Of a stretch of DNA of 64,000 nucleotides, positions 21,401-51,400 are shown in pieces. Origin of the DNA: Somniosus microcephalus. Lineage: Eukaryota. The stretch lies in assembly GCA_052327205.1 (NCBI GenBank), contig CM126212.1, forward strand, positions 60,636,001-60,700,000. Reading direction: 5' to 3'. Below the pieces are notes generated by a model. That model was not told the DNA's origin and did not search any database. It saw only the letters and a list, made by a program, of their open reading frames with translations. Every line of letters begins with the position of its first letter. The first letter of the stretch is position 1. The position numbers and the translations under genes are program-made.

Positions 21401-24400
21401 AGGTTCAGAGAGGGAATTCCACAGCTCAGGGCCTTGGCAGCGGAAGACATGGCCACCAATGGTGGAGCGATTAAAATTGGGACACGCAAGTGGCCAGAAT
21501 TAGGAGTGCAAATATCTCATTTTATTGGGGCAGTTAAAGGTAAGGAGGCTGAAGGCGAGAATAGCTTCAGTGCCCCCAGGTTCTTCCTCAGGTCACTGTA
21601 GGCTATGGTTTGCTGTTAATACTTGGTATGAGATAGTGATTTGGAGACATAACAGTTGTTAAGAGAAGTTCATGATGGGTAGCTGCTTTCGATGGAGAAT
21701 GAGGATCAAAATCAGCAAGGGCATGTTGTGGAGGGAGCTGCAAGTGGGCAGCAGAGAAGGGAGCAGTGGGGAAGAGCTTGCAGCAGCCCTACCCACCTAA
21801 CAGGGTCTATAGACAGAGGCTCAGCTTCCTTGACCTGACGGAGGGGCAGAGCTAACAAAGGCTCAGAATGTGATGTCAGTAGATTGCAGACCTCTGCAGC
21901 CTCCAAGTGTGAAAGACACCACCGTACTCAATTTCTTTTCTCTGGAGATGGTGAGGGTGTTGCAGTCAGCTACACATAAATGCATCAGGCATGTGACAGA
22001 TTATGTAAGGGCAAGCAGGAGGTGGTGGTACTAAAACTACTTATATAGCACCTTTAATGTCGTAAAATGTCTCAAGGCGCTTCACAGGAGCGCAAACAAA
22101 ATCTGACACCAAGCCACATAAGGATATATTAGGCCAGGTGACCAAAAGCTTGGTCAAAGAGTTAGGTTTTAAGGAGCACCTTAAAAAGGAGGAAAGTGAG
22201 GCAGAGAGGTAATTCCAGAGCTTAGGGCCTTGGCACGGCCACCAATGGTGGAGTGATTAAAATCAGGGATGCTCAAGAGGGCAGAATTGGAAGAGCGCAG
22301 ATATCTGAGGGTTATGGGGCTGGAGGAGATTACAGAGATAGGGAGGGCCATGGAGCAACTTGAAAACAAGGATAAGAATTCTTTTTTTTTTAAAAAAAGG
22401 CATTCCTTAACTGGGAGCCAATGTAGGTCAGTGAGCACAGGTGTGATGGGTGAACTGGACTCGGTGCAAGTTAGGACACAGGCAGCAGAGTTTTGAATGA
22501 CCTCAAGATTATGGAGGGTAGAATATGGGAAGCTGGCCAGGAGTGCGTTGGAATACTCAAGTTTAGAGGTAGCAATAAGCATGGATGAGGGTTTTAGCAG
22601 ATGAGCTGAGGCAGGGGCGAAGTCGGGCAATATTCCAGAGGTGGAAATAGGCGATTTTAGTGAGGTAGAAGTTTCAATGAGGATAGATGAAACAAACTGC
22701 TTGCCTTAAATACAGCATCAAGAATAGTCTTAGTTTTGCATCCCATCGCATCTAAAATCAACTGTATGTGGTTCTTGAGCACAGTAAAATCCACATGTAA
22801 GCAAGATATGGGCTAATCTACTTTAACATTTAACTACACATTGTGATACAGTATTTGTATACCATTTAAAAGACATATTAATGAAAATATCACAGCAAAT
22901 GTAGCCTTGTTACACTGTACATTGAATGCATGTCAAATTCAAGGCTTCAAAGAGCTGGGATTGAGTTAAAGTGGAACATTTAAGAGTTGCATACACAACT
23001 CTTGCAAGAATGAATTTAACAATAAGGCCGATTTTTTTAGCTTGTACATTTTACTGGCTGGTCAAAACAAATATTTGTACTCATTCTAATTAGTTTACAG
23101 CATTATATTTAGTCTCCTGTTATTGCTAGGTATCATCTTCAGCTTAAATTTCAACACCACACCAACTTTTCAGGAATACTGCAATGATAAAAGTGACTAC
23201 CACCACACCAACTTTTCAGGAATACTGCAATGATAAAGGTGACTACCAAGTTTTAATAATACTGTACTAGATATGCATAAATAACAAGCCAGGATGACTG
23301 AAAAGGAGTAGCCTCAATTTTAGTTTAATAGCAATGAGAACACATGGTTTGAATTTCCAGAAACTGTTCAACTTTTGTTTGAATGTCACCACATTCCTGG
23401 CTTACTGAAGTCAGCTATCTAGTTCACATGCCCTTATGCTCACCTGCAACACATCAGGTATAGCTTCAAACAGTTCCATGAGTTTGTTAAATCCATAGTA
23501 AGTGAGTTTGCACTGGCGTCCAAAGTGGTGGTGGTATGTCGGTATAAATTTGCTAAAGGGCATACGACAATGAGACTGATGTCGCAGCAAGTCCACTACC
23601 TCTTTTGCAAACTGCTTTGTCCTCTCTATTTCCTCTGGAGTACGTTCTAAATTAAAATGCAATATCTTTTTAAAAGATTGAACACGGTTTACAGCTTTCA
23701 AAAACATTTATCATAAAAAGTTACTCAATAATAATGCTAAATCCAACAGCATATTAAAGTGAAACCATAAATGGTAGATGTACAATCTGGAATAGTTCTA
23801 GAAATATTAGTAAACTACCTGTGGCATTACCCTTGGTCAGTTGATGAATGGAAGTGTATTTTTAATTATTTTTTAGATACATATACACAACATATATATT
23901 TTAATAACATGTACACACATGCACATACAAATGCATACACAAGATGGAGAAATTGAAGGGAATTTCAGAAACGAGCTCCTCAGCACCATCTACTGGACTG
24001 AGCCCGCAACTACATTGTTACAGACAACTGCTTACATACAGGATTTCCATTCTAAATGTTTATATAAGCAGCTTCTATGTTAAATGTATGGGCATGGTAG
24101 TTTAGTAGTTAGGATACTGGACTAGCAATCCAGAGGTTGCAATTTCAAATCCCATCCTGGCAAGTTGTGAAACTGAAATCAATGAACCAGTAATTTGTGG
24201 GCACTGGAAAATGATCATGAAAGTTGCTGGATGGTCGTAAAACCCACACAGTTCACAAATTTCCTTCGGAAAATGGAACCTACCACCCTTACCCGGTCTG
24301 GTCCACATGAGGCTCTAGTCTCACACTATGTGGTTGACTCTTCATGCTTCAGAGCAACTAGGCATGGTAATAAACCCCAAGAACAAATAAAAACAAGAGG

Positions 24401-33400: not shown

Positions 33401-36400
33401 CCCTGATGTAATCTCGGTTTGGTTCAGGTTGGCCTGTGCCAGGCTGTTTTGATGTGTGAAGTCCAAGTACAGATCGGCTCTGACTGAGGCTCCCAGTTTA
33501 GAGTTGTCACCTTCATACAGAGCCAGAGTCCAAGGAGATAAGAGAGCTTGGGCCTATTGAAAGTGGCATCGACCAGGGAGCCAGACCACAACTTGTGCAG
33601 GGTGATTTCAGCTGTCATTTGAGGAGAAACTCAGTGGGCTATAGGATTACTACTAGTTACTACAGGTAGGATATTTGGATGTTATGCCTATTACTTCCAG
33701 TTACATATAGACGATATGAGTTATTATATTACTGTTGGTTATGAAGGGAATCTGTGTGTTACCAGCATTAGTAGTTATTGATTCAATTTCAATTAGTTAC
33801 TATTAGCTACTGGTGGAATTTAAAGCTAAAAAAAAGGGTGGGTTTGGAGTGTGGGGGTAGTTAAATTGTTAAAAATCAGCTTTCTGACCCGAACCCGCCC
33901 ACTTCTGGTTTTAACGGCGGTGGGACGGGGGTGCAGGCAGCCAACCCGCTCCCAGGAGGCGGGATGTCAATTTAATTATGAGACTGTTAGCCTCTTCTTC
34001 AACCTCCAATTTATTTTTAACTGCATCTGGTCAGGTTTCACACACTTCGTAAAACCCGGCACTCACAGCAAGGCGGGGACTGCTGCATCCAAGAGGTAAG
34101 TGCCTTTACACTTAGCTCCTGGATCCAGGGTCCTTACCTAAGCCACCCCCTCACGAGGCCTATGATCGCCTTCCTGGACATAACACCACCGCCCCCCACC
34201 CCCGCCCTGAGCGATGATCCGTAGGCCGGCCCCAACCTCATGCCTCCACACCCCCTCCCCATCATCCCCGGTCCCTCGATGGCCCCGATCACTTGCTTCC
34301 TCCCCCACTCCATCCCAAAACTACCCCGATCTCTTGCCCCAACCCCCCTGCCACCGGCCCGATCTCTTGCTCTCTTCCCCCCCAACCGTCCCATGGCGGC
34401 CCCAATCTCTTGCCTCCCACACCACGACAGCCCCGATCTCTTGCCTCCCTCTGCACCCCTCCAATCTTTCACCTCCCCACCCCCCCCCCCGAACCGCATC
34501 CCACGACAGCCCCGATCTCTTGCAGCCACCCCCCCCCCCCCACCCCGCAACACCCTCGATGGCCCTGATCTCTTGTCCCCATTTCTCCCCCGCCCCCCGG
34601 TGGCCCCGATCTCTTGCCTCCCCCTCCTGGTCCCTTGACGGCCCCAATTTCTTGCCTCCCCACCAACGATCCTCTGGAGCCCGACATCGGCCCCCACCCG
34701 ATCCCTCCCTCCTCTGTGCGGCCTAGTGGCACAGGCCTACCCGCCCGCAGCCAGCCAGCCTCTCCATCTGGCGGCTGCTGGCAGGAAACGGAGGCTTCAG
34801 ATGCAAATCAGGCCCTGCCGTTAAAAGTCGGCAGGGCCTGCGAAAACCTTTTCTCCTACCCGCATCGGAGCCCCCCCCCCCCCCCCCCCAACTAAAATCC
34901 AGCCCACAGTTCCTAATACCTCTTTCCCACCCTCGGTTCCCCTTCCTCGCCTGTTCCCGGATGGCCTCCTAGTTATCAGTCAGAACTTCTCGTACAACAG
35001 CTGCTGGCGCGCAACCATGAGCAAAGATACTCAGCTACAGGGGGCCCAATCTTTATATGGTAAATGCAACATTTGCAGACATCGCATGATCAGAACGTCA
35101 CGTGGTCAACCTACAGTAATGCCTCCAAACCAGAGTTGGCAACCCTAGTACAGGAAACTTTGGTATCCGGCACTGATGGGACCGAGCTGGTGCCGTACCA
35201 TCAAAACTGCCGTAGAAACCAGCGCTAATGTTAAAACATACGGAGCTTTTGAGCTCCGTGTGAATCAACAAACCCTGTTGCTTAGCAACAGCTTCAAAAC
35301 AGTTGGCCGCAGCTTAAAGGCGTCTCTGTAGCTAAGCAACAGCTTCAGCTAGACCTTGCAGAGCCTGACTGGAAAAAAAAAAAGCAACGAGAAGTAAAAA
35401 AACTTATAGGAAACAGCTCCTGAATTTTGCCGGTAGATAGAGCTTTCCAGACATTTAACCTCCGGTTAAACAAAAGTTTCCTGTACCTAGAAAGATGGGA
35501 TTTTACTAGCCCACATCAAACAGCCTTTTCAGTGCATTTCTGCAACTGAATGAAGGATTATATAGTGATATAACCACACAATGAATAAATACAAAATTGT
35601 GGTAATAAAGCTAACAAAGTAGATTTTCACTTGAATTGTTTCTGTATTGTAGCATGACTTTGTACAGTGGTCCAGCAGACCAGGGCTATTAGAGTACAGG
35701 GCCAATAGAGTACAGGAGTTCTGAACAGTTTATGCACATCACAAGGCAGACCTTGGAAACGCTGTCGCTTTTCTCCTCAATCCCACCAATAAATTACATA
35801 ATGCAAAGAAAAGAATAGAGTACTATTTAAAAGGCAAGCACTCACCTGAGGAGGGGCACAGTACCCTCATGTGTATGTAACAGGCTATGAACCTGTGGTG
35901 CAAATGTTTTTAGGGACAATATTATGAATGGTATTTTATAAGAATCTGGATCAAATTCATTTTCACTGCAACAGAAAAAGGAAACAAAATGTTATTCCAA
36001 GGAACGCACCTTCTGCATTCATCTACCTCAAATCAGGTACTGAAACAATTGCCCTCGTTAGCACATTAACACATCTCTTAACTACTTTTTGAAGTGCAGT
36101 GACTTGGGCAAATGTGTCATATTATAGGCACGAAAATAGATAATATTCATTATTTTCAGGCAATTGTTACAGGCAGCAAAAGCTGTCTTGATGCTTATTC
36201 TTAACAGTTTAACATAAAATAGACCATCTATCGACAGGATGTGGACAACTACCAACAGAAACACGATTCCTACCTACAGCCATTATCGGAGCAGTGCTGT
36301 TTGCAGATTGGTTCATGGTATTCTAGTTCTTCAAATATCACTGGGCTGCAGTTGGCTGATGAACCATCATATGACAATACAGAACCCAATGGGCTCTGCC

Positions 36401-39400
36401 TAGCCTGACTGGACAGGAGACAAACCATTCGTCCATTTACTTGGTCACGAATAGCCACCGTGTCCGTTAATTTGTATAAGTCAGACACAATCAATTTGTG
36501 TCCAAATCTGGAGGGAGGTTAAAAAAAGTTACTAAACAGTTATGACATTTTCTGAAGAGCTTTAACCAGTTTCTGTGCTATAATCTATTTATGTATAAAA
36601 ATACACGTGCACTTAGTACCTGGAATATAAATAGACCTGAACCGAGCAATATAATTTTACTAAAAGTAAATACGTAACAAAGGTAAGAAACTTTCCATTT
36701 TGCCAAACACAATTTGATACATTTCATATAAACCGTCAGTGTGAATCACCACAACTTCAACCAATTCTCTACTTTAGAACTGCTGTATTTAGACACTTCA
36801 CACTAGTACCATCTACATCCAGTATCACAGAACTGAAGAGGTGAGAACATTCCTTTGTGTGCAACAGCAGCTGGCAAATTCAGTGTATAAATGTACCTTT
36901 CTACAATAGAATAGCTAAAAGATAGTCATAATATCTCTATAACCAATTTAACAGCTAATTTTCACTTTCCTCAGAATCCCAACTCCTTTATACTATGGCA
37001 TACAGTCCAGTGGGAGAAGGGGGTACCCGACTCCAAAACCAGTAGAGGGATAAAGCAAGTATCAACTGCTTAATTTGTTCCCCCTTCCCTCACATACTTC
37101 TCAAATCAAAGGGGTGAACACATTGCCACAGAATAATTGGTATAATAAATGAAGATAATGTGCGAACAGCCCACAGAACTACAATCTCTACCTTTTCTCA
37201 TAAATCTCGGTGAATTTGAACAGTGGCAAGCAACATGCTGGGGCATCCTGCAGGATGGACATGGCCTCAGAGCTGTAATCAAAAGTAAAGAAATCATAGA
37301 GCAAGGCATTCATTCATGACGTTTCTGAATCATATACAAGTCATCAATACCAAGTAGTTTTGTAAGATTTCTTTTTGAACTATGATGTAATACTTAGAGG
37401 CACAACTAGCAAGCCAAGATCAGGTGAAGGGACCAATCCTTTCTTCTGATATTTTATTTAAATTAACAAAACTCCAAATTTCACAGGGCTTAATCTTTCT
37501 TCCAGTGTACAGATTACTGGCGTTTTTGTTACTACTCCATACCATCAGATGCTTTTCTCATAGAAACACTCAAATTAAAAAGAAATTGTCTTAATTTGCT
37601 TATCTATAAATAGCAAATTGTGGTCTTCTCACGTAATAAATTACAACACTTGCTTTTGTTAGATTAGGTCAATGTTGCAATGAAAAAGGAATAGTTTTTG
37701 AATTGGTTGAAAAAAAACATGCAAGTGTGGCCATGTCATCGAGTCCCAAGCACATTTTATAGTGGTTGCAACTCCATTGATTCAACACCACAAAATGTGT
37801 GTTCACCAAGGTGAAGAATGTTTTGGTCACACAAGAATGCAATATATAGCATTTATTTATGGGTATTTTGTGCTGTATACTTGTGCCCAAAAGAACTACT
37901 TGCAGCATCTTTAAAAAAAAAAAAACTACAATTTCATGCAGGACCTTTACAGCTAGCAGAGATTTATCAGATTAGTATGCAACGGGTTCAGGCCCAAAAA
38001 GTGAACGATACTGAGCCATTCATTTACCCCTAGAATTCAGGTTTGAAATAGACACAAAATTCACGAGTAGGGGGAAGAGGGTGGGGTATAGTGGCTGCAT
38101 CAATGTGCAAGTGACATTACGGCAAGAATAAAAAGGTTGTACAAATGCATTAAGTAGCACCTCCACCAGCCCCCCATCCACCAGCAGTACACAAAGCTGT
38201 GAAGATGTGACTTGAGTACTTGTGTTTTATGGTAGCACCTCAGTGGGTACCAGTATTTTTTGGACTTGTGCAAATAGTTACACTGATTATTCACATTACA
38301 CTTGAGGCGCTGGGGCCGACGAGCTCAGTCAGTAGATTATAAAACTCTTAATGTTAGGATCATGGGTTCGAGCCCAACGTTGGGCGGCTTGTATTCAAAT
38401 ATTTATTCATCTGCCGTCCGGACACGCCTTGGCGTGCCAGCTTGCTGTCCGGCGGAGGTCCCCAATGGAGGGCTCTACGTGGGAGTCCTCCCTTTTTCTA
38501 TTGGGGACTTGGCCTGGAGGGTGTTGCATGGAACAGTCCTGTGCAATATGGTTTTAAATAGGTTCACGGACTCCCAGGCCACCTGCCTTTTCTTTGGCCT
38601 GCAGGAGTCCGTGTTTCATGTTTATACAGAGTGAGAGAGGTTGCAGCCCCTCTTTCACTACTTCCTCAATTTTTGGCTGCACTTCAGTCCCACGCTCCTG
38701 ATCTTTGATCACCCGGTGTAGAGGGGAGCGGGCAGATCGGAGGACCTCCTCGTAGGACTGCTCCTGGGCCTGGCCAAAATAGCCATTAACTGGTCCAGGC
38801 AGCGGGCAGTCGAGGGGGTCGTTCAGCCCGATTGCCTGCCTCTCTTACGCAGCCATGTTCGCACCCGGTGGCCCTGGAGCATGCGGTGTCCGCCGGCACG
38901 CTTACGGCCTTCCGCGACCGGTGGGCGCCGCGGGGACTGGAGTGCATCATCACCCCGGCCAATGAAATTTTAATTTAATTTGTTAAGGTTCTTTTAAAGT
39001 TTTATTAGTTAGTCCATTTGTTTAATCACCCAAAACCAGAAGAGTACACTTGAATCAGACAGCAGGGCTTTGTGTACACTCACCTCAGTCACATGCACAG
39101 CTCTGCTTTCTAACCTTCAACTGCCAATTAAGTTTTTAAAGTTAGAAAGCTGACAATCATTAGTTCTTCACTAATCATTAAAAACTAAAAGGTTAAAAAG
39201 GACATTAAATAAGTTTTAATCTTCACTTCAAATATAGCATGACACCATCTCCTCCTCCACCCCCAAATATTCAAAATTTGGCAAATATGGTTGTAAAGAT
39301 TGTTATAAATCTCATCATGAAGAAACGACTCATGAAACAACACTGGACGGCCAGCTGGTGGCGCTGTCCAAGGAGTATAAATACTCGGGCGTGGCCCAGC

Positions 39401-42400
39401 TTGCCCAGGGACATTTTGTAAGACAGGAACTAGTGAAGTACAACTAGACCTCCATGTTTTGAAACAAGTTGATTAAAGCCTTGCTTTATACTCGAACCAA
39501 GTGCATAGTGAGTTTTATTACATCAATGATCATGGAAAGTACAAGCCAGTAAAGCGAGCAATTTTAAACATGTGGTAGCTAGAGGCACAAACAACCTTAC
39601 CCAAGTAAAGCCAGAGATTTATTGGTGCTTCCGGTAGCTAATGACACTTGGACTCTCTTGCTTCCTATTTTGTATCTGTGTAAACTATTGACAGCCGAGA
39701 TCGCTTCCTGGAGACTCCCCATCTGAACTGTTGCCTTCAGCTGATAATCAGTATGAGGACTTAGTTCCACATTCTTCACCTACATATCCAGGAGTGGAGA
39801 CAAAAAAACCTTCCAGTTATGGCTCACTTTTGGGTGATTATAAAGTTTTTTTTTTTAAATTCAGAAATCTGTTCTGTTTTAAGTTAGTCAAGCAAGAAGT
39901 CTATTGATAATTCATGAGAAAAATACATCTAATTGCAGACTATTCATAAACTAATAAATTGCAGAAACTGCAAGAAACAGCCACACCTGCTCCCCTCATG
40001 GCTCAGTGGCTAGCTGCACCAGGTGTGGTACCGAGTCATACAGATTATGTAGGGTCTACATTTGGTTCTTGATCTGAGCTAAATGAGCAGATCTCAACCA
40101 GTGTGGTAAATAAAAATTAGAGGTTCTAGTCATCAGTCCAATTAGTCCCACTCAGGATTAGCAACCTTGGAAGAAAATTATATTTTAGACCCAACTCACT
40201 CTCCGCACGTCGCCCCCCCAACCCCCCACCCCAAAGGTTCTAAGAAAGGCTTCTGTCTAGCACTCCAATTGGGTTAACTTGTTCAAATGAGGCAGATCAA
40301 CCAAAACAGAATTAAATCCATAATCTGACTGGAAATCATATGCTTAAAAAGATCAGTGAGCTAAACTATCAAGGAAACCGGATTACAAAATCAATGGCCT
40401 GGAAATTGCATTTGGAGGCTTGCCGCCCGCCCGCCCACACCTCCAAGCCGCAAGAAAAATATGTACTTACCTGCTGTCTCCAGAACTTCGGACTCTTGTT
40501 GTCCTGGGCCTGCAGGCATACGCCTGCATAAAGGCCCACGCATCCCAGGGGCGCATGCGGTTCGCAAGCTTCCCTGGGATCACGTGGGTCGGCCCAACCA
40601 ATGACAAAGGAGAATTCCTATGACGCTTATGGGGATTTCATTTACGTATGGAATCCCCATAAGCAGAATAGAAATCACCTAATAAATACAATTTCACAAC
40701 AAATAAAAATGATGACAGGATCAAAATTTATTTAAAAATACCATTTAATTAAACATTTAAAATAAAAATTACATTTTTTGAAAAATAAATGTAAACATTT
40801 TTAACTAGGACAAATTGACCTAAACTTATTTTAAATGTAAGTGAATGTTTAAATAATTTTTTTTAAATTAATTTTAACATTTATTTAAACCCTTACACTA
40901 GTAAAAGGCCTTATGCCTGCTTTTACCAGATATAAAGGTTTGGTGGGTATTCGCTGGGCAGTAGTTGGGCAAACAGCCCAACCCTGCACCAGCGAAAATG
41001 AATTTACAGCGGATGCATAAGATCTGGCAAGACGAACCTTGACAGATCGCAAGTTCCGGGTTCACACGCATGCACATCGCCCGTGGAAACCTGGAACTTG
41101 TAGGGCACTCATGACGTCATACGCTGTGCATACGCCGTCATAGGCCCCGGAAAATCCAGGCCAATGTATGTAAACAGATCCTTTTATTCTGTCAATGCAC
41201 GAAGTTAGTAACCATAAAGGTGCAGATTAACTACAGTAAAATGGCGATTTCCACCTCTGCACACTTCAGTAAACTCCCTCTTCCAGTGAACTCCCTCCTC
41301 CAGCCCCCAAGTGAGAGTGTAACAAACATCACTGGAAGTTTAGCTCATCTTTAAGTGACAGATTGGGTAGTACTGTATCATTTTTACAAGCCGTTAGCCT
41401 TACAGGATATTTTAAGTGAATGTTTGAATATAACTGAAAAATGCAGGAAACATGTTCAAAACCTCAACCTGAATAACGGTAAATCGCTTAGCCACAGATG
41501 AACTAACTACAAGATGCCACAGCCCAAATACCTTCAACAGGAATGAGATAATCCATTGCCAATTTAAGGAATCTTTTTAAAAAGCACCCCAAAAATACAA
41601 CTTATCACAGCAAGGCAGGATTACTATATTAAGTATGCTCACAGTACAGAAGCAGACATTAAATGTGAACATTTTAACAAGCATTGGGCAAAGATGAAAG
41701 AATGAAGCACAATCAAAAATGTAAATTCTAAAACTTGAAATTGAGTGTATGGTCACTATCTTCTCCAGGTCTAACCGAAACATAGGCCAAAAACAGTTAC
41801 GTGGTATAAAAGTGCAATTGATGTGCTTTCAGGGCTTTTCTCCAACATACTCAGTATAGCCTGTGGCCAAGTCAGAAGTTTACATTCCCATTAAATTTCT
41901 AACCCGATACAAATCTTTCAGAGAAAGTTGGGCTCCAACTAAGAATCCAATTAAAAAAACTGAAAACACAATGAAAGCTTCACAACTACTACTAGTCTTG
42001 TTATTTACAGTGTTGCAATATTGCTATACTGGAGTGCAGCTATAAAACAGTATTCAGCATTACTCTTTATTTAAGCATTCAGCCAGTTTACCTTGCCATG
42101 CCTGAAGAAAATCTCACGCAATATTTGTTGTAGTTCTTTTCTGGACATCCTGTAATCCAAGTTGCTGACCTGTATGTCTGCTCCATTTGCAAACGGGTCA
42201 GTCTGGGAGTCAGAATAATGAGGTTGGTTTGCACTTATAGGAGAGGAGCGGTTTGAAAGGCTTGGGGATAGGCTCCTAGGATAATTAGCAAGAGAGTCAA
42301 ACATTGTACACTCTAAAGGTAACACATTAAAACTTCACCAGAGCCAAGTATCAAAAGTTCAACAGTGAAATTGCACTTCGAAGCTCCTATTACAACTCAA

Positions 42401-45400
42401 CTAGTTTGGATTTCCTATTCCTTACTAGTGGCTAATTTCAAGGTTTGTCTCCAAATAACTGTTGGAAAATGTAATTTTTTAAATCTTAAAAAAGTAGATA
42501 GATGTTAGAAAAATTAAGTTACCTCGCAGACCAAGAACCATGGCACATAATAGGAGGCGTGTTATGTCTTGAAATCGACAGCTTAGAAAAAGCAGAAGGG
42601 GAACTGACATGGAAGTCAACTTTCTTCTCAATTTTGTCTATGGGGGATTCCAGGAAACTTCTAAAAGTTGGAGTTTCTCTCCTGTTTAAGAAAAATGTAG
42701 ATTTTAAGCAACGTGTATATGTTTTGCATTTATACAAAGTTTGTTATACGTGAGCACATTAACATTAGAAGTCTACTTCTTGTGTTTCAATTGAATTTTT
42801 TGCATGCAAGAGTGACATTAGATAACGGAGTTCTACAGAAACATTTCTTCTCCCTCTTGGCACTAGAACAACTTCCCTATTTTGACATCTTTGCTGAGAA
42901 GATATAGATAGAAGGTGCAGAAGTGCAGTTTGAGAGAGGGGGAGGGAGGCTAATTTACCTCTACCCAACATTTCCCATGACTGTAAATTCACAGGCCAAT
43001 CAAGCGGATATTTAGCTAAAACTAAATTAGTCTTCACCTCTCTCTTTCAGATGCAAAATTCAGTTAGGATCAGAAACTTTGTATGGGGAATTTTCTGGTA
43101 CTATACCCTATCCCACTGAGTACTTCACCCATTGCATTTATTGCTCCAGCAGTACTTCACACTCCTGTGTTAAAAGTTCATACTGTGCTACATTAACAGT
43201 TTGTGGCACCCTAGATCACTCCTATTTGAACAGATGAAGTGTGCTAATGCATCAAGAATTCAGTTGTAATTAAGTATTGTACCTAAAATTTTAACTTGCC
43301 TTTCAGAAGCCAAATCACCTATGAATTTCCAGCACTGTTTTTTATTTTAAAAATTGACAAAAATCTGAAGGAAACATTTTTAACACTCCTTCAGTTTAAG
43401 GAATTATATAATAGGTTGATCAGTCCTTAACCAACCCCACTTACATTTAATTTATTTGAAGAGATTCATCAAAAAATACATTTGTGCCTATTCCTTACCT
43501 CAATAATTTGATTACAATAGTCAGTACAGTTACGCTCAAACAAATAATTCAAAAAAGCACAAGGAACTAAAAGTACATAAAGTTTAAAGAGTGTTATTGG
43601 AAGCCCGTCAAAAAAAATCAATTAAAAGTCAGCCAGTTTATAGATAATAAATAGAAACTTACTTAATGTTTTCACTGAAAGAATCTCCGTTTCCTACACT
43701 TTTAGGAGAGGCTGGGGAATAAATGGGAGTGCAATGGCTTATTGGTGGAGATTCAGTTCCTTGCTTTTTGATCTGCTGCGTACGTACACTTTGCTTGGTT
43801 TTAGATTCCATACCACAGAGCTCCTTATAAAACAAGTAATAAATAATTAACCACTTACAACTTAATGCACAAAATGGTTTCAACAACCTAAATCAGTGCA
43901 AGCTCTAAATCAGAACAGGGAAGAAAACCAGCTTTTAATTAAAGAGTTGCGAATAAACTAACTCATTTTCAAAACCCTAAGTAGGAGTTAAGTTTAAATA
44001 AGACTGAGGAGCCAAACTTTGTTCTCCGAGTCACAGCTGGGAGGTACAAGTGGTAGCAGAGATCTTTGAAGGGATTAAGCAATGTATTGATAAAGCCCAG
44101 CTCGACAACAGGAACAGAAACGACGTTTGGTTTTCTAGACCAAGGTTACAGTAATTAAAATTATAGGAGGTAAACACAATCAGGTCATTCTCCTTAAACT
44201 TCAAGGATTACAACATGATCTTTTAAGGTTGCAATAGCCATCAAGCTCACTTTTGCTGTTAACGCCCGGTTTCAGAAACCCTAACCGACCAAATTTTCCT
44301 TTACCTCCTACGACATTTACCTTCACTCGCTGCCAAGTAAACAACTTCAGGAAATAACTATACTCAGTTTCAGAGAACATTCAAATGCATTTTGTTTAGT
44401 TTTCATGAAACTACATGTCCCCACTAAACTACTCAAGTGAAAACTTGTTAAGACCACGGATTTATACATTTATAAATCAATATTGTGGGTGCACTGCAGT
44501 TTATTTCAGAAGTCTAACATTGATATTTGCATTACTCCATATTATTTGGCTCAATTCTGCAGTGTAAGATGCCGACACAAGTACTTACTATTTTAAACTC
44601 CTATTACTTCAAAGCCATGGATTGAGATGATGAGAAATGAGACATTAAAAGTTACTTTGCTAAAAGAATTCTATTTGTGATTACTGAAATGTGATAAGCT
44701 ATAGTAAACTAGTAGAGACATTGATAAGACTCAATATTCACATGCAGAAAAGCTGCTTAACTGCAGCCCCTGGTATGTATGGCATAATGGCAGGTCTACC
44801 ACAGAGGACTAAAAGCTTCCAAATTGAATTGTTAAGCACACAGCTAAAACACTACATTGGACCCTAAACTTCCATACTATAGGGCAAACAGCCACCATGT
44901 AAGTAGCTTAACACCAGGGACTATATGAAACAAGACCAGTTCTTCAGTCAGCCTCCTTTTTTTTGGGGGGGAGGGAAAGTGGGGGGGGGGGGTGAGGTGA
45001 GGTGGGGGAATTGCACATATTTTCTGCCTCTTCATGCAAGACACCTGTAGCACCTGAATCCATTATTAACTAATCAATCAATTACTTGTGCAGGACGTGC
45101 TGCATTAACTGTCTTGTAGGAAATTGTCTTCTCTCTCTTTTCATTGGACCCAATAAAAAAGAAACAATTTCACAAATAAGGTGACAACAACCCAATTACC
45201 CTTTTAAATAACCCTCCACCAATCAAATTAAAATTTGGTTGTCCCGATTAACAATGCACTCCAGTCCCCGCGGCGCCCACCGGTCACGAAAGAGCTCGAG
45301 CGTGCCGGCGGACACCGCGTGCTCCATCTCTAGGGCCACCCGGGCGCGAACATGGCCACGGAAGAGGGGGAGGATGGAAATTGTCTTCTGTGGTTAAGGA

Positions 45401-48400
45401 TTGATTGATCTGGACTGCCTGCCTGCTGGTTAATTTGCATATGAAAATGTATGCAGATGTCAAGAACATAAGAAATAAGAGTAGGCATTTTGAGCCTACT
45501 ACACCATTCAATAAGTTCATAGCTGATCTTCCACTTTCCTGCACTATCCCCATAATATTCAAAAATCTATCGATCTCTGTCTTGAATATACTCAACAATT
45601 GAGCCTCCACAGCCCTCTGGGGTAGAAAATTCCAAAAATTCACCCCCCTCAGTGAAGACATTTCTCCTCATCTCAATCCTAAATTGCCAACTCCTTAATC
45701 TGAGACAGTGACCCCTGGTTCTAGACTCTCCAGCCAGGGGAAACATCCTCCCTGCATCTACCCTGTCAAGTCGTGTAAGGATTTTGTATGACTAATTCGC
45801 ACTATAGTGACCAAATCAGTACATTTGATTGTCCAAAATGCTGAACTGTATTCTCTCGAGATACTGTATACAAGATGACCAACAATGTTACATTTGTGAT
45901 CCATGACAAAAGAAAGTTCCAATTACAATTTTAAACAATCCAGTGTCTGATGGAGAAGTTACTCATACCTTTGATTGAAAATCAAACAAGACCTTTAAGG
46001 GTACGTAAGCAACAATAAATGATAGTCATGGATGAAGAATCTGCACTTATATTGTGCCTTATCATCTATCAAGATATCTTCATATACATTTAATTATGCT
46101 GATGTGCAGTCATGTAGACAAATATGGCCACCATTTAAATACAGCAATGTCCTACAAACACCAAGAACTAAATGATCAGTTAATCTGCTTTTTGGTGGTA
46201 TTGTTTGAAGGGGGAATGTTGTCAAGATACTGGGAGAATGCTAAATAGTTATCTTTAACATTCAACTGCATAGGCAGACAGAGGCTTGGTTTAATGTCTC
46301 ATATGAAAGACCATTTATAAAATGAAGATAGTGTCAGTCTTGCACTGAAATGTTAACCAGGATTATGATCAAGAACAGGCTTGAACTCAATAACTTAATG
46401 GGTTTGAGTAATATTAAAAACTAAAATGGGTTGGAATGTTACAGCTTGAATACTCACAAATATCATTTTTATATAATATATATATTTAGCCCAGCTTGGT
46501 ATTTTTTTGGAACCAGTAAACCACATCTTTGGTTCCTATAATAAGTCTTTCCATTTGGCTCCACAGCATGTGATTGAGGGTGCTGGGGATTATTATAATT
46601 GTAGCCCACCATTTTAGTAGTTGTTGGACAGCAAGTGGGGAGGGTGTACTGATGTTGGAAATTCCTGTGTGCATTACATTATAAATTGCTAACTGTGCTA
46701 CATCACTTTGCTAAACAAAATTACACAAATTGATATGCAACCAATCAGGCCAATTTAACAGAGTTCAGAGTCCAATTAAGGATACCTGTCCCCTTATCTT
46801 TATCTTTTGAAGATGGTGAGTTGTAGCCCTTTAATATCTTGCCCCAGTAACATGTGATCCTAGCCAGCAAGTGTCAAGTAGGCTCTTGGACCAGAGGAAG
46901 GGGCCATCGCAAGTTCGCACATGAACAGTGCCAGTAGGGTCAATGGATACCAATCAGGAATTGGAAAATTTGCTGATTTATTTTTCCCATTCCTAAGCTC
47001 AAAGCACTGATGCGAACTGTAACATCCCAACAACTGTCCCAGTTAAAATCAGGTAACTCAGCAGAGACCATGCATTGAATTTGGGACTAGATCTGTGTGG
47101 CTCACTGTCACATTACATGATGCCTTTACCCAACAAACTGTGAAAAGAGTGGGAAGGATAGCACTTGTAAAATTTGTTTCAGGCAAAGCATTTTGGAGTA
47201 CCAGATGGTAAGAACATAAATGCCCTCCATCAGCATTCCAGTTGAAATACTATGGGGTCAAGGCAACAATTCAAAGGCAACTCGCTTAAAAAAATGCATT
47301 TCTCTCAAACAAATGCAGTAAAAGCAATTGGTACTTGGCCAATCATCTCCTTTAAAAGGAACTGGCTAAATATCTAATTTGGTATAAGATTATTGGGTTA
47401 AGTATTAAGAGAGACAGTCAAATGCTCCATGGACATAATAACTGGAGTTCGGGAAGGAGGTGGTGTTATCTGAGGAGGGCAGGACCCCAAGGTTGAATAG
47501 TAAAGGTGTGAGGGTGGACATATATTTCACAGCTCACGATTACTTTTGGGAATTAAGAGTGTATTTATACACATTTGACAGAAAATTGATTAGATTACAT
47601 ATGCTTGTGAAAAGATCAGTCTTGACGAGCTGAACAAGCCTTTTTCATTCCACTTTCTTGTATTTCTTCCTTTCTTTGCCAGTTTTTTCTGCGCCCTGCT
47701 CCTTTCCTGACAGCAATAACTACTTATTAGGATTGCTCTCCAGTACTTCACTTCCAACAGGTTTACTGGATAGCAATGAAGAGTGGGAAGTGGGGATTGA
47801 ACCTGGGACCTTCCTAGTCTGTATGTGTCAGCTACTCACCAGATACTCGTTGAGTCAGATTCCTCAACTTTTAACCTTAATTCCATTTCACAGAATCACA
47901 GAAACCCCACAGTGCAGATAGAGGCCATTTCGGCCCATCGAGCCTGCACCGACACATATCCCACCTGATCCCCGTAGCCCCTACACCAACACATATCCCA
48001 CCCTATCCCCCTAACACTAAGGGTCAATTTATCATAGCCAATCAACCTAACCCGCACATCACTGACAATGTATCACCACAAGCCCAATTTGAATCACACT
48101 CAATGGGACATTGGCATTGTGTTAGATGCCGATAATAGTTTTGTCTACCCTCATTACATAAGGATTTTCTGTTCTTTATCCATTTGTACAAAGAGATAGG
48201 TCACAGTAATATCTTATTGTCCCTCCTATGGTTCCATATGTAATTTGAGATGTATTAAATGAACAGATTACCTGTAAACTTCTGACACTGAAGTTTTTAA
48301 CTGCTGATCCTTCGGTTGTCTGCGAGTTCTTTACTGCAGAATTTTTACCATTCTGTAATTGCTCATCAAGGTCTTTGTTCAGCTGACAGTGTTTTGTAAG

Positions 48401-51400
48401 CTTGCTTGCCTTTTTAGGGGATTTTGTCTTTTCAACTGTAAAGCAGTTATTTTTGCTCTCATAAAGATCTTTATTTTTTGGTGTAAAAGATACTAGGATC
48501 TTATTGCCAAAGACATCTTCATTCTCCATACGCTTCTGTGCACGCTCAGCACTTTCCTGGCTTGTAAAACGAAGGATTGCACTGCTGCCGGTAATGCTTA
48601 AAACTTTTCCACCACAATTATCAGACAAACGGCGCAGTCTGTTGCTTACTTGCTTGCTGTCTCTGTTGAGTGGCAAATTGTACGCATACAGAAGAGTATG
48701 GCATTGCTGGAGAGCGAGTAAGAAAGTGAGTGAGCAAGAGATTGAGAAAATAAGAGGAAGAATGAGCAATTGAGAGAGAGAGAAAAGGCAAGAAACAAAA
48801 TCAAAACAAATGTTTTATTATAGTCTAAAAAGATGAAAACAAATCGTTAAATTTATTCTGATAAACAATATTCTGTTTGTTCATCCATGGGCAAATTTGC
48901 TTTTTTGTTAAAAATAAAATGTACTGAAATCTTTTATTGAGAACACTTTTTAAACAGCTGGTAACTGAGACATCGCAACTTCTGAGTACCAGGGCTACCT
49001 TTCACTCCAGTATGAAAAACCAAGTCACTGTTCAGGTACAAGTGCTGCAGGAGAAAGGCAGCCTTGCACATGGGAAAAACAAAACAACAGACTGTACAAG
49101 TCGGTAAAGGACCCAGAGTTCTCATGAGAAACTAACCAAATATTGTCTTTTAGGTAATTAATTTAATATGAAACATTTTGTACTAGGGTAAAGAGGACTC
49201 CAGCTTGTGAGACACAACTGAAGTGCTGCTTAGAGAAAAGATAGGGCCAAATTTCCTAATGAACAATGCTTGAACTCTCAAATGATCCATTAATACTTCA
49301 GATTTAGTCATTTGTTAATTTTAATTTAGATGATTATTTTAGAAGACACTTACTGGTGTTTTCTCTGGTAACCTTGGCGGTAAGTTAGAAACAAATTCCT
49401 CAAATTTGATATGCTTATGTGCATGTTGTAAAAGTGATTCTGAAACTTGATTCTTGTGTACCAAAATAACCTGAAAACCATGTCGATGCCGAAGGTCACT
49501 CAGTTCTGAGGCAAAGTTAACATCAGCTGCAAAATGACAAAACCACAATTATCAGAAAGAACAAATTCCGACCGAAATCAAACTCTCACCCTTTTATTTC
49601 AAACTACAAAAGGCTGGAAAAGGTTTCCTCAATGTTCACTCATTGCTCAGTACTTTATTAAGAAATGTATGTAAGGGATGACACAAAGTTCAACAGCTGA
49701 ACAATGAACACTTTCACAAAATTTGCCTTGATCTCCAACTAAAGAATATATGCTGCTACTGTTATACAAGACATCAATTTTCATCACTCCATTCATTGCA
49801 AATCTCCAAAACCTAAAATTGCAGATGTTTAACAGTGCCCATCCCAATCCCAATGAATTTATATTTTTCATTGTGGCGACAACACCACTGAGCTGCTATT
49901 CTTGATCCTGTTCCTTTCCTGTGATAAATGTTTCAAATGAAAATAAATGAAGTTTTGTAGCACTGATTACTTACAGGACACCAAAATAACAGTGGACGGA
50001 GCAGTGTGAGTGTCAGCAAATCGCCTCAAACTCTGTCTAAGCTTGTCATCTGCAGCATTTTTTGCTGTTGCATTGATATGTGCAACTGTCACCTGCAACA
50101 CAGAAGTGATATAAAAAAATACTAATTTTCAATCACAACCTCAGAGCTAGAAAGTACAAGTACTGTCTTACACACACAACAAAGGAGGATGAATCAAGAA
50201 CTAAATGGGTAATGTTAACCTAACCTGCCCGACAGGGAACTGACATGATCAGATCGGCTGCCTGTTTTACACCCCGCCTAATTTGAAAGTCAATGTAAAA
50301 TCAGGAAGAGTCTATTTGAATGCACAGGACATCACCATACACTTACTTGCCTCCCAAAAGTTTAACATACAAGAAACATTCTTCACTCTTACACTTTTAA
50401 AAACTTCTCATGGCAAAGTGCCTGTCTCTTTTTTTTAAATTAATAGCACATTATATCCTTTAGATTCAGGGGAATTACAGTAACTGGTATTGTCAGGTTA
50501 TACAGCTGCCTTACCTGGCAATTGTTAAGTTCCTGGATAACTTCCTTGTTTTCCTTGCTAATATCACACACACACATGAATTCTGCCTCTCTGTGGCCTT
50601 GAAAAAATCGTTGACGGATTCGCTGTACTATTGCCATGGCTGATCGTCCTGTTGGGACGGAGCAATTTTCTATATCCCAAAACACCCCAATAGGAGGTAG
50701 ATTCTCCTGCTGTCCTAGTACACCAATATCAGGTGATCCTGTAAAAAAGAATCCCAGAATTAGAACCACTTTTTTCAGTAACTGTTGCTGCTAACAATTA
50801 AAGCTGCATTCTCCTATAATTTTATTTTTAATTCAAAGGTGCCAATTAAAATAACACAAAAAATAGAACTGCTCATTAAAACATAACTGACACCCACTAA
50901 TCAGGACATCAGAAAGCATTTTGATATAGACAAGTGCAAAAATAATCAAAACATTATTGGTACAGTATACTAAGAAATGGAATCTTTCTAGAAGATATTT
51001 TAAAACCAGTTTTACTTACACAACTGAAGTTCTTCAACTGGCTTTCAGGTATCAATGTGAAAGAAATACTGTATCTTATCCATTTAAAGGAATAATAAAA
51101 GGGATTTGACAGTTTTAATAGTTTGGGGATTGTCAGTTTCCATTCTTTCAGCACCACAATCAGACTCCTGGAATTAAATCAACTTACACCCACGTGAATG
51201 TAACAGCAATTAGTTGTTGACTCTAAATTGCTTTAACAATGAGCAAAATAGGCAGGGCTCATTGACATGTGGAAATTAAATCCACTGATGGATGGCTCAA
51301 TAATTTATTCAAAGAAGTGACTGATTTGGTCGAATTCTGGAGGAACACATCTTAAAAAAAAATTCATAAATATGACAATGAATTACTAATCAATAAACGG

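Follow-up and report, generated by a model that had tools for sequence, protein, structure and literature searches.

A window of 64,000 nucleotides of the Somniosus microcephalus genome (CM126212.1, positions 60,636,001 to 60,700,000; coordinates below are those of the window) contains a full-length but decayed copy of tRNA-Lys(CTT) immediately ahead of the 3' end of a Tx1-clade LINE. We consider it probable that the two arrived together as a one-event chimera, formed when the reverse transcriptase of Tx1 left its own RNA and continued on a tRNA-Lys transcript that had yet to be processed.

Structure of the insertion and target preference of the Tx1 subfamily

The sequence TACACTTGA occurs on the plus strand at 38297-38305 and again at 39045-39053, and the match is extendable on neither side. 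Between these copies lie, in order, an 8-nt leader (GGCGCTGG, 38306-38313), a 73-nt copy of tRNA-Lys(CTT) without CCA (38314-38386), the start of a 3' trailer (38387-38395), a 10-nt linker (38396-38405) and 639 nt of a 5'-truncated Tx1-clade LINE (38406-39044), head and tail having the same orientation and being separated by 19 nt of trailer and linker. This confirms the coordinates given in a preliminary description, which had placed a leader, a 73-nt tRNA without CCA, a trailer and a Tx1 tail of about 640 nt within one repeat. That description had also called the tRNA complete, which holds for its length and not for its integrity, since it differs from an intact array gene at 13 of 73 positions.

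Upstream of 38406 sister copies run on as ORF2, so the copy in the window is 5'-truncated. It retains a frameshifted ORF2 C-terminus, with the stop codon at 38976-38978, and a short 3' UTR that ends AGAAGAG without poly(A). The tail matches residues 1102-1259 of Xenopus Tx1 ORF2 (tblastn, E 9e-19), and a near-full-length sister of 7.2 kb (L061), in which APE, RT and zf-RVT domains are recognised, is 59% identical to the same Xenopus protein over 99% of a 283-aa RT stretch; by this similarity alone the tail is assigned to the Tx1 clade.

Target preference was read from 29 sister loci (L077-L105) found among the best 40 matches of a 3'-end query that ended before the duplication. By script, TACAC stands exactly at the 3' end in 18 of the 29, and over 30 copies, this one included, the motif is conserved position by position as T26 A26 C28 A27 C26. 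A target-site duplication (TSD) of at least 13 nt was found at the Tx1 5' end of 23 of the 29 (script, with one to two mismatches allowed); these duplications are typically 13-15 bp long and also begin TACAC, so that the motif is part of the target. Among the remaining six sisters, two have a TSD of 13-14 bp recognisable by eye, two a decayed one and two none. The subfamily therefore appears to have a short target preference, with cutting before TACAC, TSDs of 13-15 bp and no poly(A). The window tail, at 6.1% from the subfamily majority, falls within the range of its sisters (3.7-8.9%).

Against this background the TACACTTGA repeat is likely to be the TSD of the whole tRNA plus Tx1 insertion, because the subfamily inserts at TACAC, with which the repeat starts, and duplicates 13-15 bp by the 5' end of the element, whereas here the only match in the window lies 100 nt upstream of the Tx1 5' end, beyond the tRNA. 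A particular 9-mer would fall no further than 30 nt from a set position with a probability of about 8e-5 if bases are independent, and of about 1e-3 when measured in the window, its own three occurrences being counted in. At 9 bp, the duplication is about 5 bp shorter than those of the sisters.

A second Tx1 fragment, at 45133-45375 on the minus strand, is flanked by a 14-bp TSD (45119-45132 and 45376-45389) whose target start is not TACAC. It had been cited as a sign that the same family makes TSDs; the 14-bp duplication stands, and the common family does not, since the fragment is only 78% identical to the window tail over 171 nt and, with its non-TACAC target, belongs to another subfamily. 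It is thus weak support, and the 29 sisters are the proper control. Separately, ten Tx1 copies (L006, L007, L008, L020, L021, L015, L028, L010, L022 and L023), several of them on small contigs, do not have the AAAAGAG end and continue into one common downstream sequence, which may mark either another target site or a unit that was duplicated.

The tRNA-Lys head and the copy number of the junction

ARAGORN reported no tRNA in the window, and the head scores 19.4 bits against Rfam, below the cut-off of 29; a match to the Rfam family Flavivirus_SLIV (E 0.15, far below its cut-off) was taken as chance. Of the best 40 matches to the head with its flanks, 36 fall on tRNA-array contigs (30 on C35, 4 on C38 and 2 on small contigs). 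The trailer GTTGTATT of C35 genes is matched by the window at 8 of 8 positions with one inserted base (background 1.7e-4 per comparison), and the leader TGCGGTGG of one C35 subfamily at 6 of 8 (background about 0.003 per comparison), where the leader match is the best among several leader types and the loci compared had been picked by a query that itself contained leader and trailer. This C35 subfamily has three head variants in common with the window copy, its tRNA body being only 54-56/73 identical to the head, and searches for the source gene with exact patterns returned this locus alone or nothing. The leader and trailer are likely those of a pre-tRNA, towards which their likeness to array flanks points without naming a source gene; the proposed comparison with the flanks of real tRNA-Lys genes gave these partial matches and no exact source. 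The linker is absent from L061 on both strands and from the array trailers seen, and candidate origins for it are untemplated bases or the trailer of an unseen source gene.

The arrays themselves are large (loci L033-L060, L157-L185 and L107-L125, on contigs C35, C38 and C19). C35 carries tRNA-Lys genes and amplified pseudogene variants in large spread-out arrays, C38 has tRNA units of about 4 kb, and C19 has large arrays of U6 units of about 4.8 kb.

The head, with its 13 differences from the intact gene, is more diverged than the tail is from its subfamily majority (P 0.0004, or P 0.013 if the three variants derive from the source gene). Because it lies inside the TSD, it cannot predate the insertion event here, and we infer that its source was likely an array gene that was already variant. 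This divergence is also the best point in favour of two separate events, either an older tRNA retrocopy behind which Tx1 later inserted (the upstream 9-mer would then match by chance) or a later insertion of the tRNA into the left TSD, and the shortness of the TSD would fit as well. Two events would demand, however, the loss of an adjacent TSD that most sisters have kept, together with a 9-mer match, at a chance of 1e-3 to 1e-4, that begins on TACAC; moreover, a tRNA inserted later should be less diverged than the tail, yet the head is more so. We regard such a history as improbable.

Counting copies of the same tRNA-Tx1 junction in the genome, the check suggested in the preliminary description, gave one locus, the outcome that had been set for a chimera. 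Patterns for the tRNA end, with and without the Tx1 start, matched this locus alone in 6.4 Gb, and none of the other 39 best matches to a junction query spans both parts. When 44 distinct Tx1 5' ends were compared with a set of 105 array tRNAs covering ten types, and with U6 (nine loci without a 5' end and six duplicates being left out), a tRNA head was found at one, namely this locus. A few diverged copies could have been missed by these searches, which either demand exact matches or give scores for the top candidates alone. A pattern designed to find further tRNA-Lys copies preceded by TACAC returned one intact array gene only, and it is insensitive, needing an exact match and missing this locus too; a further search of the genome returned only the query locus and array-type genes.

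These counts bear directly on the suggestion that the locus is a member of an undescribed Tx1-mobilised tRNA-Lys SINE family. Its layout is that of a SINE2, with a tRNA-derived head that has an intact B box and an A box with T8G, followed by a LINE tail, and in crocodilians SINEU is described as mobilised by Tx1 (PMC4494074). The many dispersed copies with one head-tail junction that characterise a SINE2 were nevertheless not found in the searches above, the single head among the 44 Tx1 5' ends being this one, and the tail is not free of internal Pol III terminators: it contains seven T4-T5 runs (T5 at 38493 and 38670, T4 at five further places), compared with six in the subfamily majority, and oligo-T is reported to terminate Pol III transcripts (PMC4494074). 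With the junction found once and Pol III stop runs inside the tail, a SINE family is scarcely credible.

The same two observations also make it very improbable that the insertion is a read-through copy, as had been proposed. The donor would then have been a truncated Tx1 that had landed behind a tRNA-Lys gene, whose promoter drove its transcription. A donor of this kind would account for the leader, the trailer and the variant head, and array turnover could have erased it. Nonetheless, no donor with the same junction was found, 29 tRNA-Lys loci (about 3 kb each) contain no Tx1 within 1.5 kb, such a transcript would meet the first T run as early as 38493, and the donor junction, which would be expected to start TACAC, does not. 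Dewa is the name of a type of Tx1 that targets tRNA genes. Whereas Dewa-type elements use a fixed site of tRNA arrays, the subfamily described here is found at TACAC in varied flanks, and the absence of Tx1 from the 29 tRNA-Lys loci likewise gives no indication of insertion at a fixed array site.

Template switching and ligation as possible mechanisms

The locus combines three of the features by which small-RNA/LINE chimeras are recognised, namely an RNA 5' of a truncated LINE, one TSD with the target motif and an independent junction. In the template-switch mechanism that we favour, the Tx1 endonuclease would have nicked the target at TACAC and 639 nt of Tx1 RNA would have been reverse-transcribed, after which the enzyme would have moved onto a nuclear pre-tRNA, adding about 10 bases in the process, and copied it from the 3' trailer up to the 5' leader; joining to the target would have left a duplication about 5 nt shorter than usual. 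Since Pol III would terminate at the T runs, far short of the 3' end of Tx1, the copy likely failed to spread. The chimeric retrocopy of a pre-tRNA and Tx1, one of the readings first offered for this locus, is in this way backed by the TACAC repeat, the array-like flanks, the missing CCA and the unique junction. The short TSD, the more diverged head, the want of an exact source gene, the 10 linker bases and the fact that no empty site was seen all count against it.

The main rival is a route in which RtcB first ligated the pre-tRNA to a cleaved Tx1 RNA, the product of this fusion serving afterwards as the template for reverse transcription. The sense orientation and the complete head would fit ligation equally well. 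Pol III pre-tRNAs end in U-OH, which counts against this route, as does a junction with 10 untraced bases instead of a clean T run; a trailer cut by a nuclease could, on the other hand, bear a cyclic phosphate. Joining by RtcB has been demonstrated for U6/L1 and is reported to require a 2',3'-cyclic phosphate (PMC6789731). On balance, ligation seems to us rather unlikely here, and a switch of template by the Tx1 reverse transcriptase remains the preferred explanation.

Related junctions, known systems and genomic context

Similar arrangements occur elsewhere in the genome, an indication that the process recurs. Of 48 U6 loci found, 26 were examined; five of these (L128, L131, L134, L137 and L143) have same-sense CR1-like sequence directly 3' of U6, and two have a Tx1 of another subfamily in that position. 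These two (L139, C4:238160726, and L147, C12:22669938) are copies of one event, being 95% identical over 489 nt that include 200 nt of upstream flank, and no third copy was present among the best 40 matches. Three further U6 copies run into what we take, by eye, to be SINE-like (L129, L146) or 5S-like (L136) sequence.

Four of the best 40 tRNA-Lys matches lie on non-array chromosomes, and three of these four stand directly before a truncated LINE. They include two candidate tRNA-Lys/CR1 chimeras, at C1:385717891-385717955 (L154) and C13:42515165-42515235 (L153), in each of which a full-length copy is followed by a same-sense 5'-truncated CR1 that starts no more than about 5 nt after the tRNA, no CR1 being present in the 400 nt upstream. 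Neither the two tRNA-CR1 junctions nor the U6-Tx1 junction showed a convincing TSD, and they are treated as candidates only. A dispersed tRNA-Lys on C7 was considered as a retrocopy and rejected, since its array-like flanks on both sides indicate a copy made at the DNA level. We tentatively suggest, from the small sample of four tRNA-Lys copies, that the Tx1 and CR1 reverse transcriptases of this lineage may as a rule take up entire pre-tRNAs, unprocessed and in sense, unlike human L1. Were this so, the genome would preserve failed SINE births as a fossil record that can be counted, and comparison of its one-offs with real SINE families would test whether internal Pol III terminators in the captured tail decide which chimeras become SINEs.

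The human tRNA/L1 chimeras described comprise 21 loci, mostly tRNA halves and 16 of them antisense, the antisense halves being ascribed to twin priming (bioRxiv 10.1101/2025.02.02.635956; PMC13174262); as here, the tRNA lies 5' of a truncated LINE within one TSD. One of them, tRNA-Glu 1-72/L1MC1 on chr6 (PMC13174262 supplement 3), is by its coordinates in the same sense, with a leader of about 8 nt, no CCA, a gap of 11 nt and an 11-bp TSD (the TSD cells being printed one row up in that table). The partner in these cases is L1, whereas here it is a Tx1 that has a target preference and lacks poly(A). In U6/L1, U6/L2 and U6/RTE chimeras (PMC4476161, PMC6789731) a full-length Pol III RNA likewise precedes, in sense, a 5'-truncated LINE, although here a pre-tRNA, whose promoter is internal, takes the place of U6; U6 chimeras are reported for several LINE clades in PMC4476161, in the text of which Tx1 does not occur. 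Retropseudogenes of pre-tRNAs are also known (Schmitz 2004, as cited in PMC4476161).

Crocodilian Tx1-Mar elements with U1/U2 heads, and SINEU (PMC4494074), have in common with the present locus the Tx1 machinery, a 5' small RNA and a target preference, but they are multi-copy, with snRNA heads and a Mariner target, in contrast to the one copy, tRNA head and short TACAC found here. Similarly, Xenopus laevis Tx1L (UniRef YTX2_XENLA), which L061 resembles at the RT identity given above, is reported to target the Tx1D transposon (PMC4494074), whereas the present subfamily inserts at TACAC in varied flanks. Neither a tRNA/Tx1 chimera nor a TACAC-targeting Tx1 family was found in the literature searched, to which Repbase and subscription journals did not belong. 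The process is already known, and what is new here is the Tx1 partner, by which tRNA/LINE chimeras are extended to the Tx1 clade, and the TACAC preference. As a neutral, decayed accident the single locus is of little weight in itself; it is also a clean instance, as a dead end, of the intermediate from which SINEs are proposed to arise, in which a tRNA head and a LINE tail are joined by template switch (PMC4476161).

The age of the insertion was examined in 18 sequencing runs, of which four were aligned, those of organisms B-F, with small word shares, being set aside; one related organism (organism A) has the flank, and no outgroup with it was found among the 18. The organism A contigs, from two studies, reach 38445 and 38435, so that they take in the flank, the tRNA and the first 40 nt or 30 nt of Tx1, respectively, and stop before the 3' junction; the first alone satisfies a 31-letter bridging rule. 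Organism A has 38 listed differences in 37300-38177 (4.3%); its 48 gap letters in 1146 are too few to remove a 73-nt head. No empty site was seen, the sole relative with the flank carrying both the tRNA and the junction. The chimera thus predates the split from organism A, and the insertion common to both could be a phylogenetic marker.

Minus-strand exon frames of MARF1 lie on both sides of the insertion, that of the LOTUS domain at 36273-36518 (Pfam PF19687, E 1e-42), downstream of it, and that of RRM1 at 48179-48814 (Pfam PF11608, E 3e-24), upstream, so that the insertion is intronic and antisense inside MARF1, where it is dead and probably neutral. Nearby, a high-copy repeat of about 230 bp (about 39298-39527), with TG...CA-like ends, is missing from the organism A contig and is possibly a solo LTR inserted after the split. 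Elsewhere in the window, a tRNA recognised by Rfam at 34.1 bits, its T arm broken, lies at 24091-24159 on the plus strand and is probably the head of a SINE.
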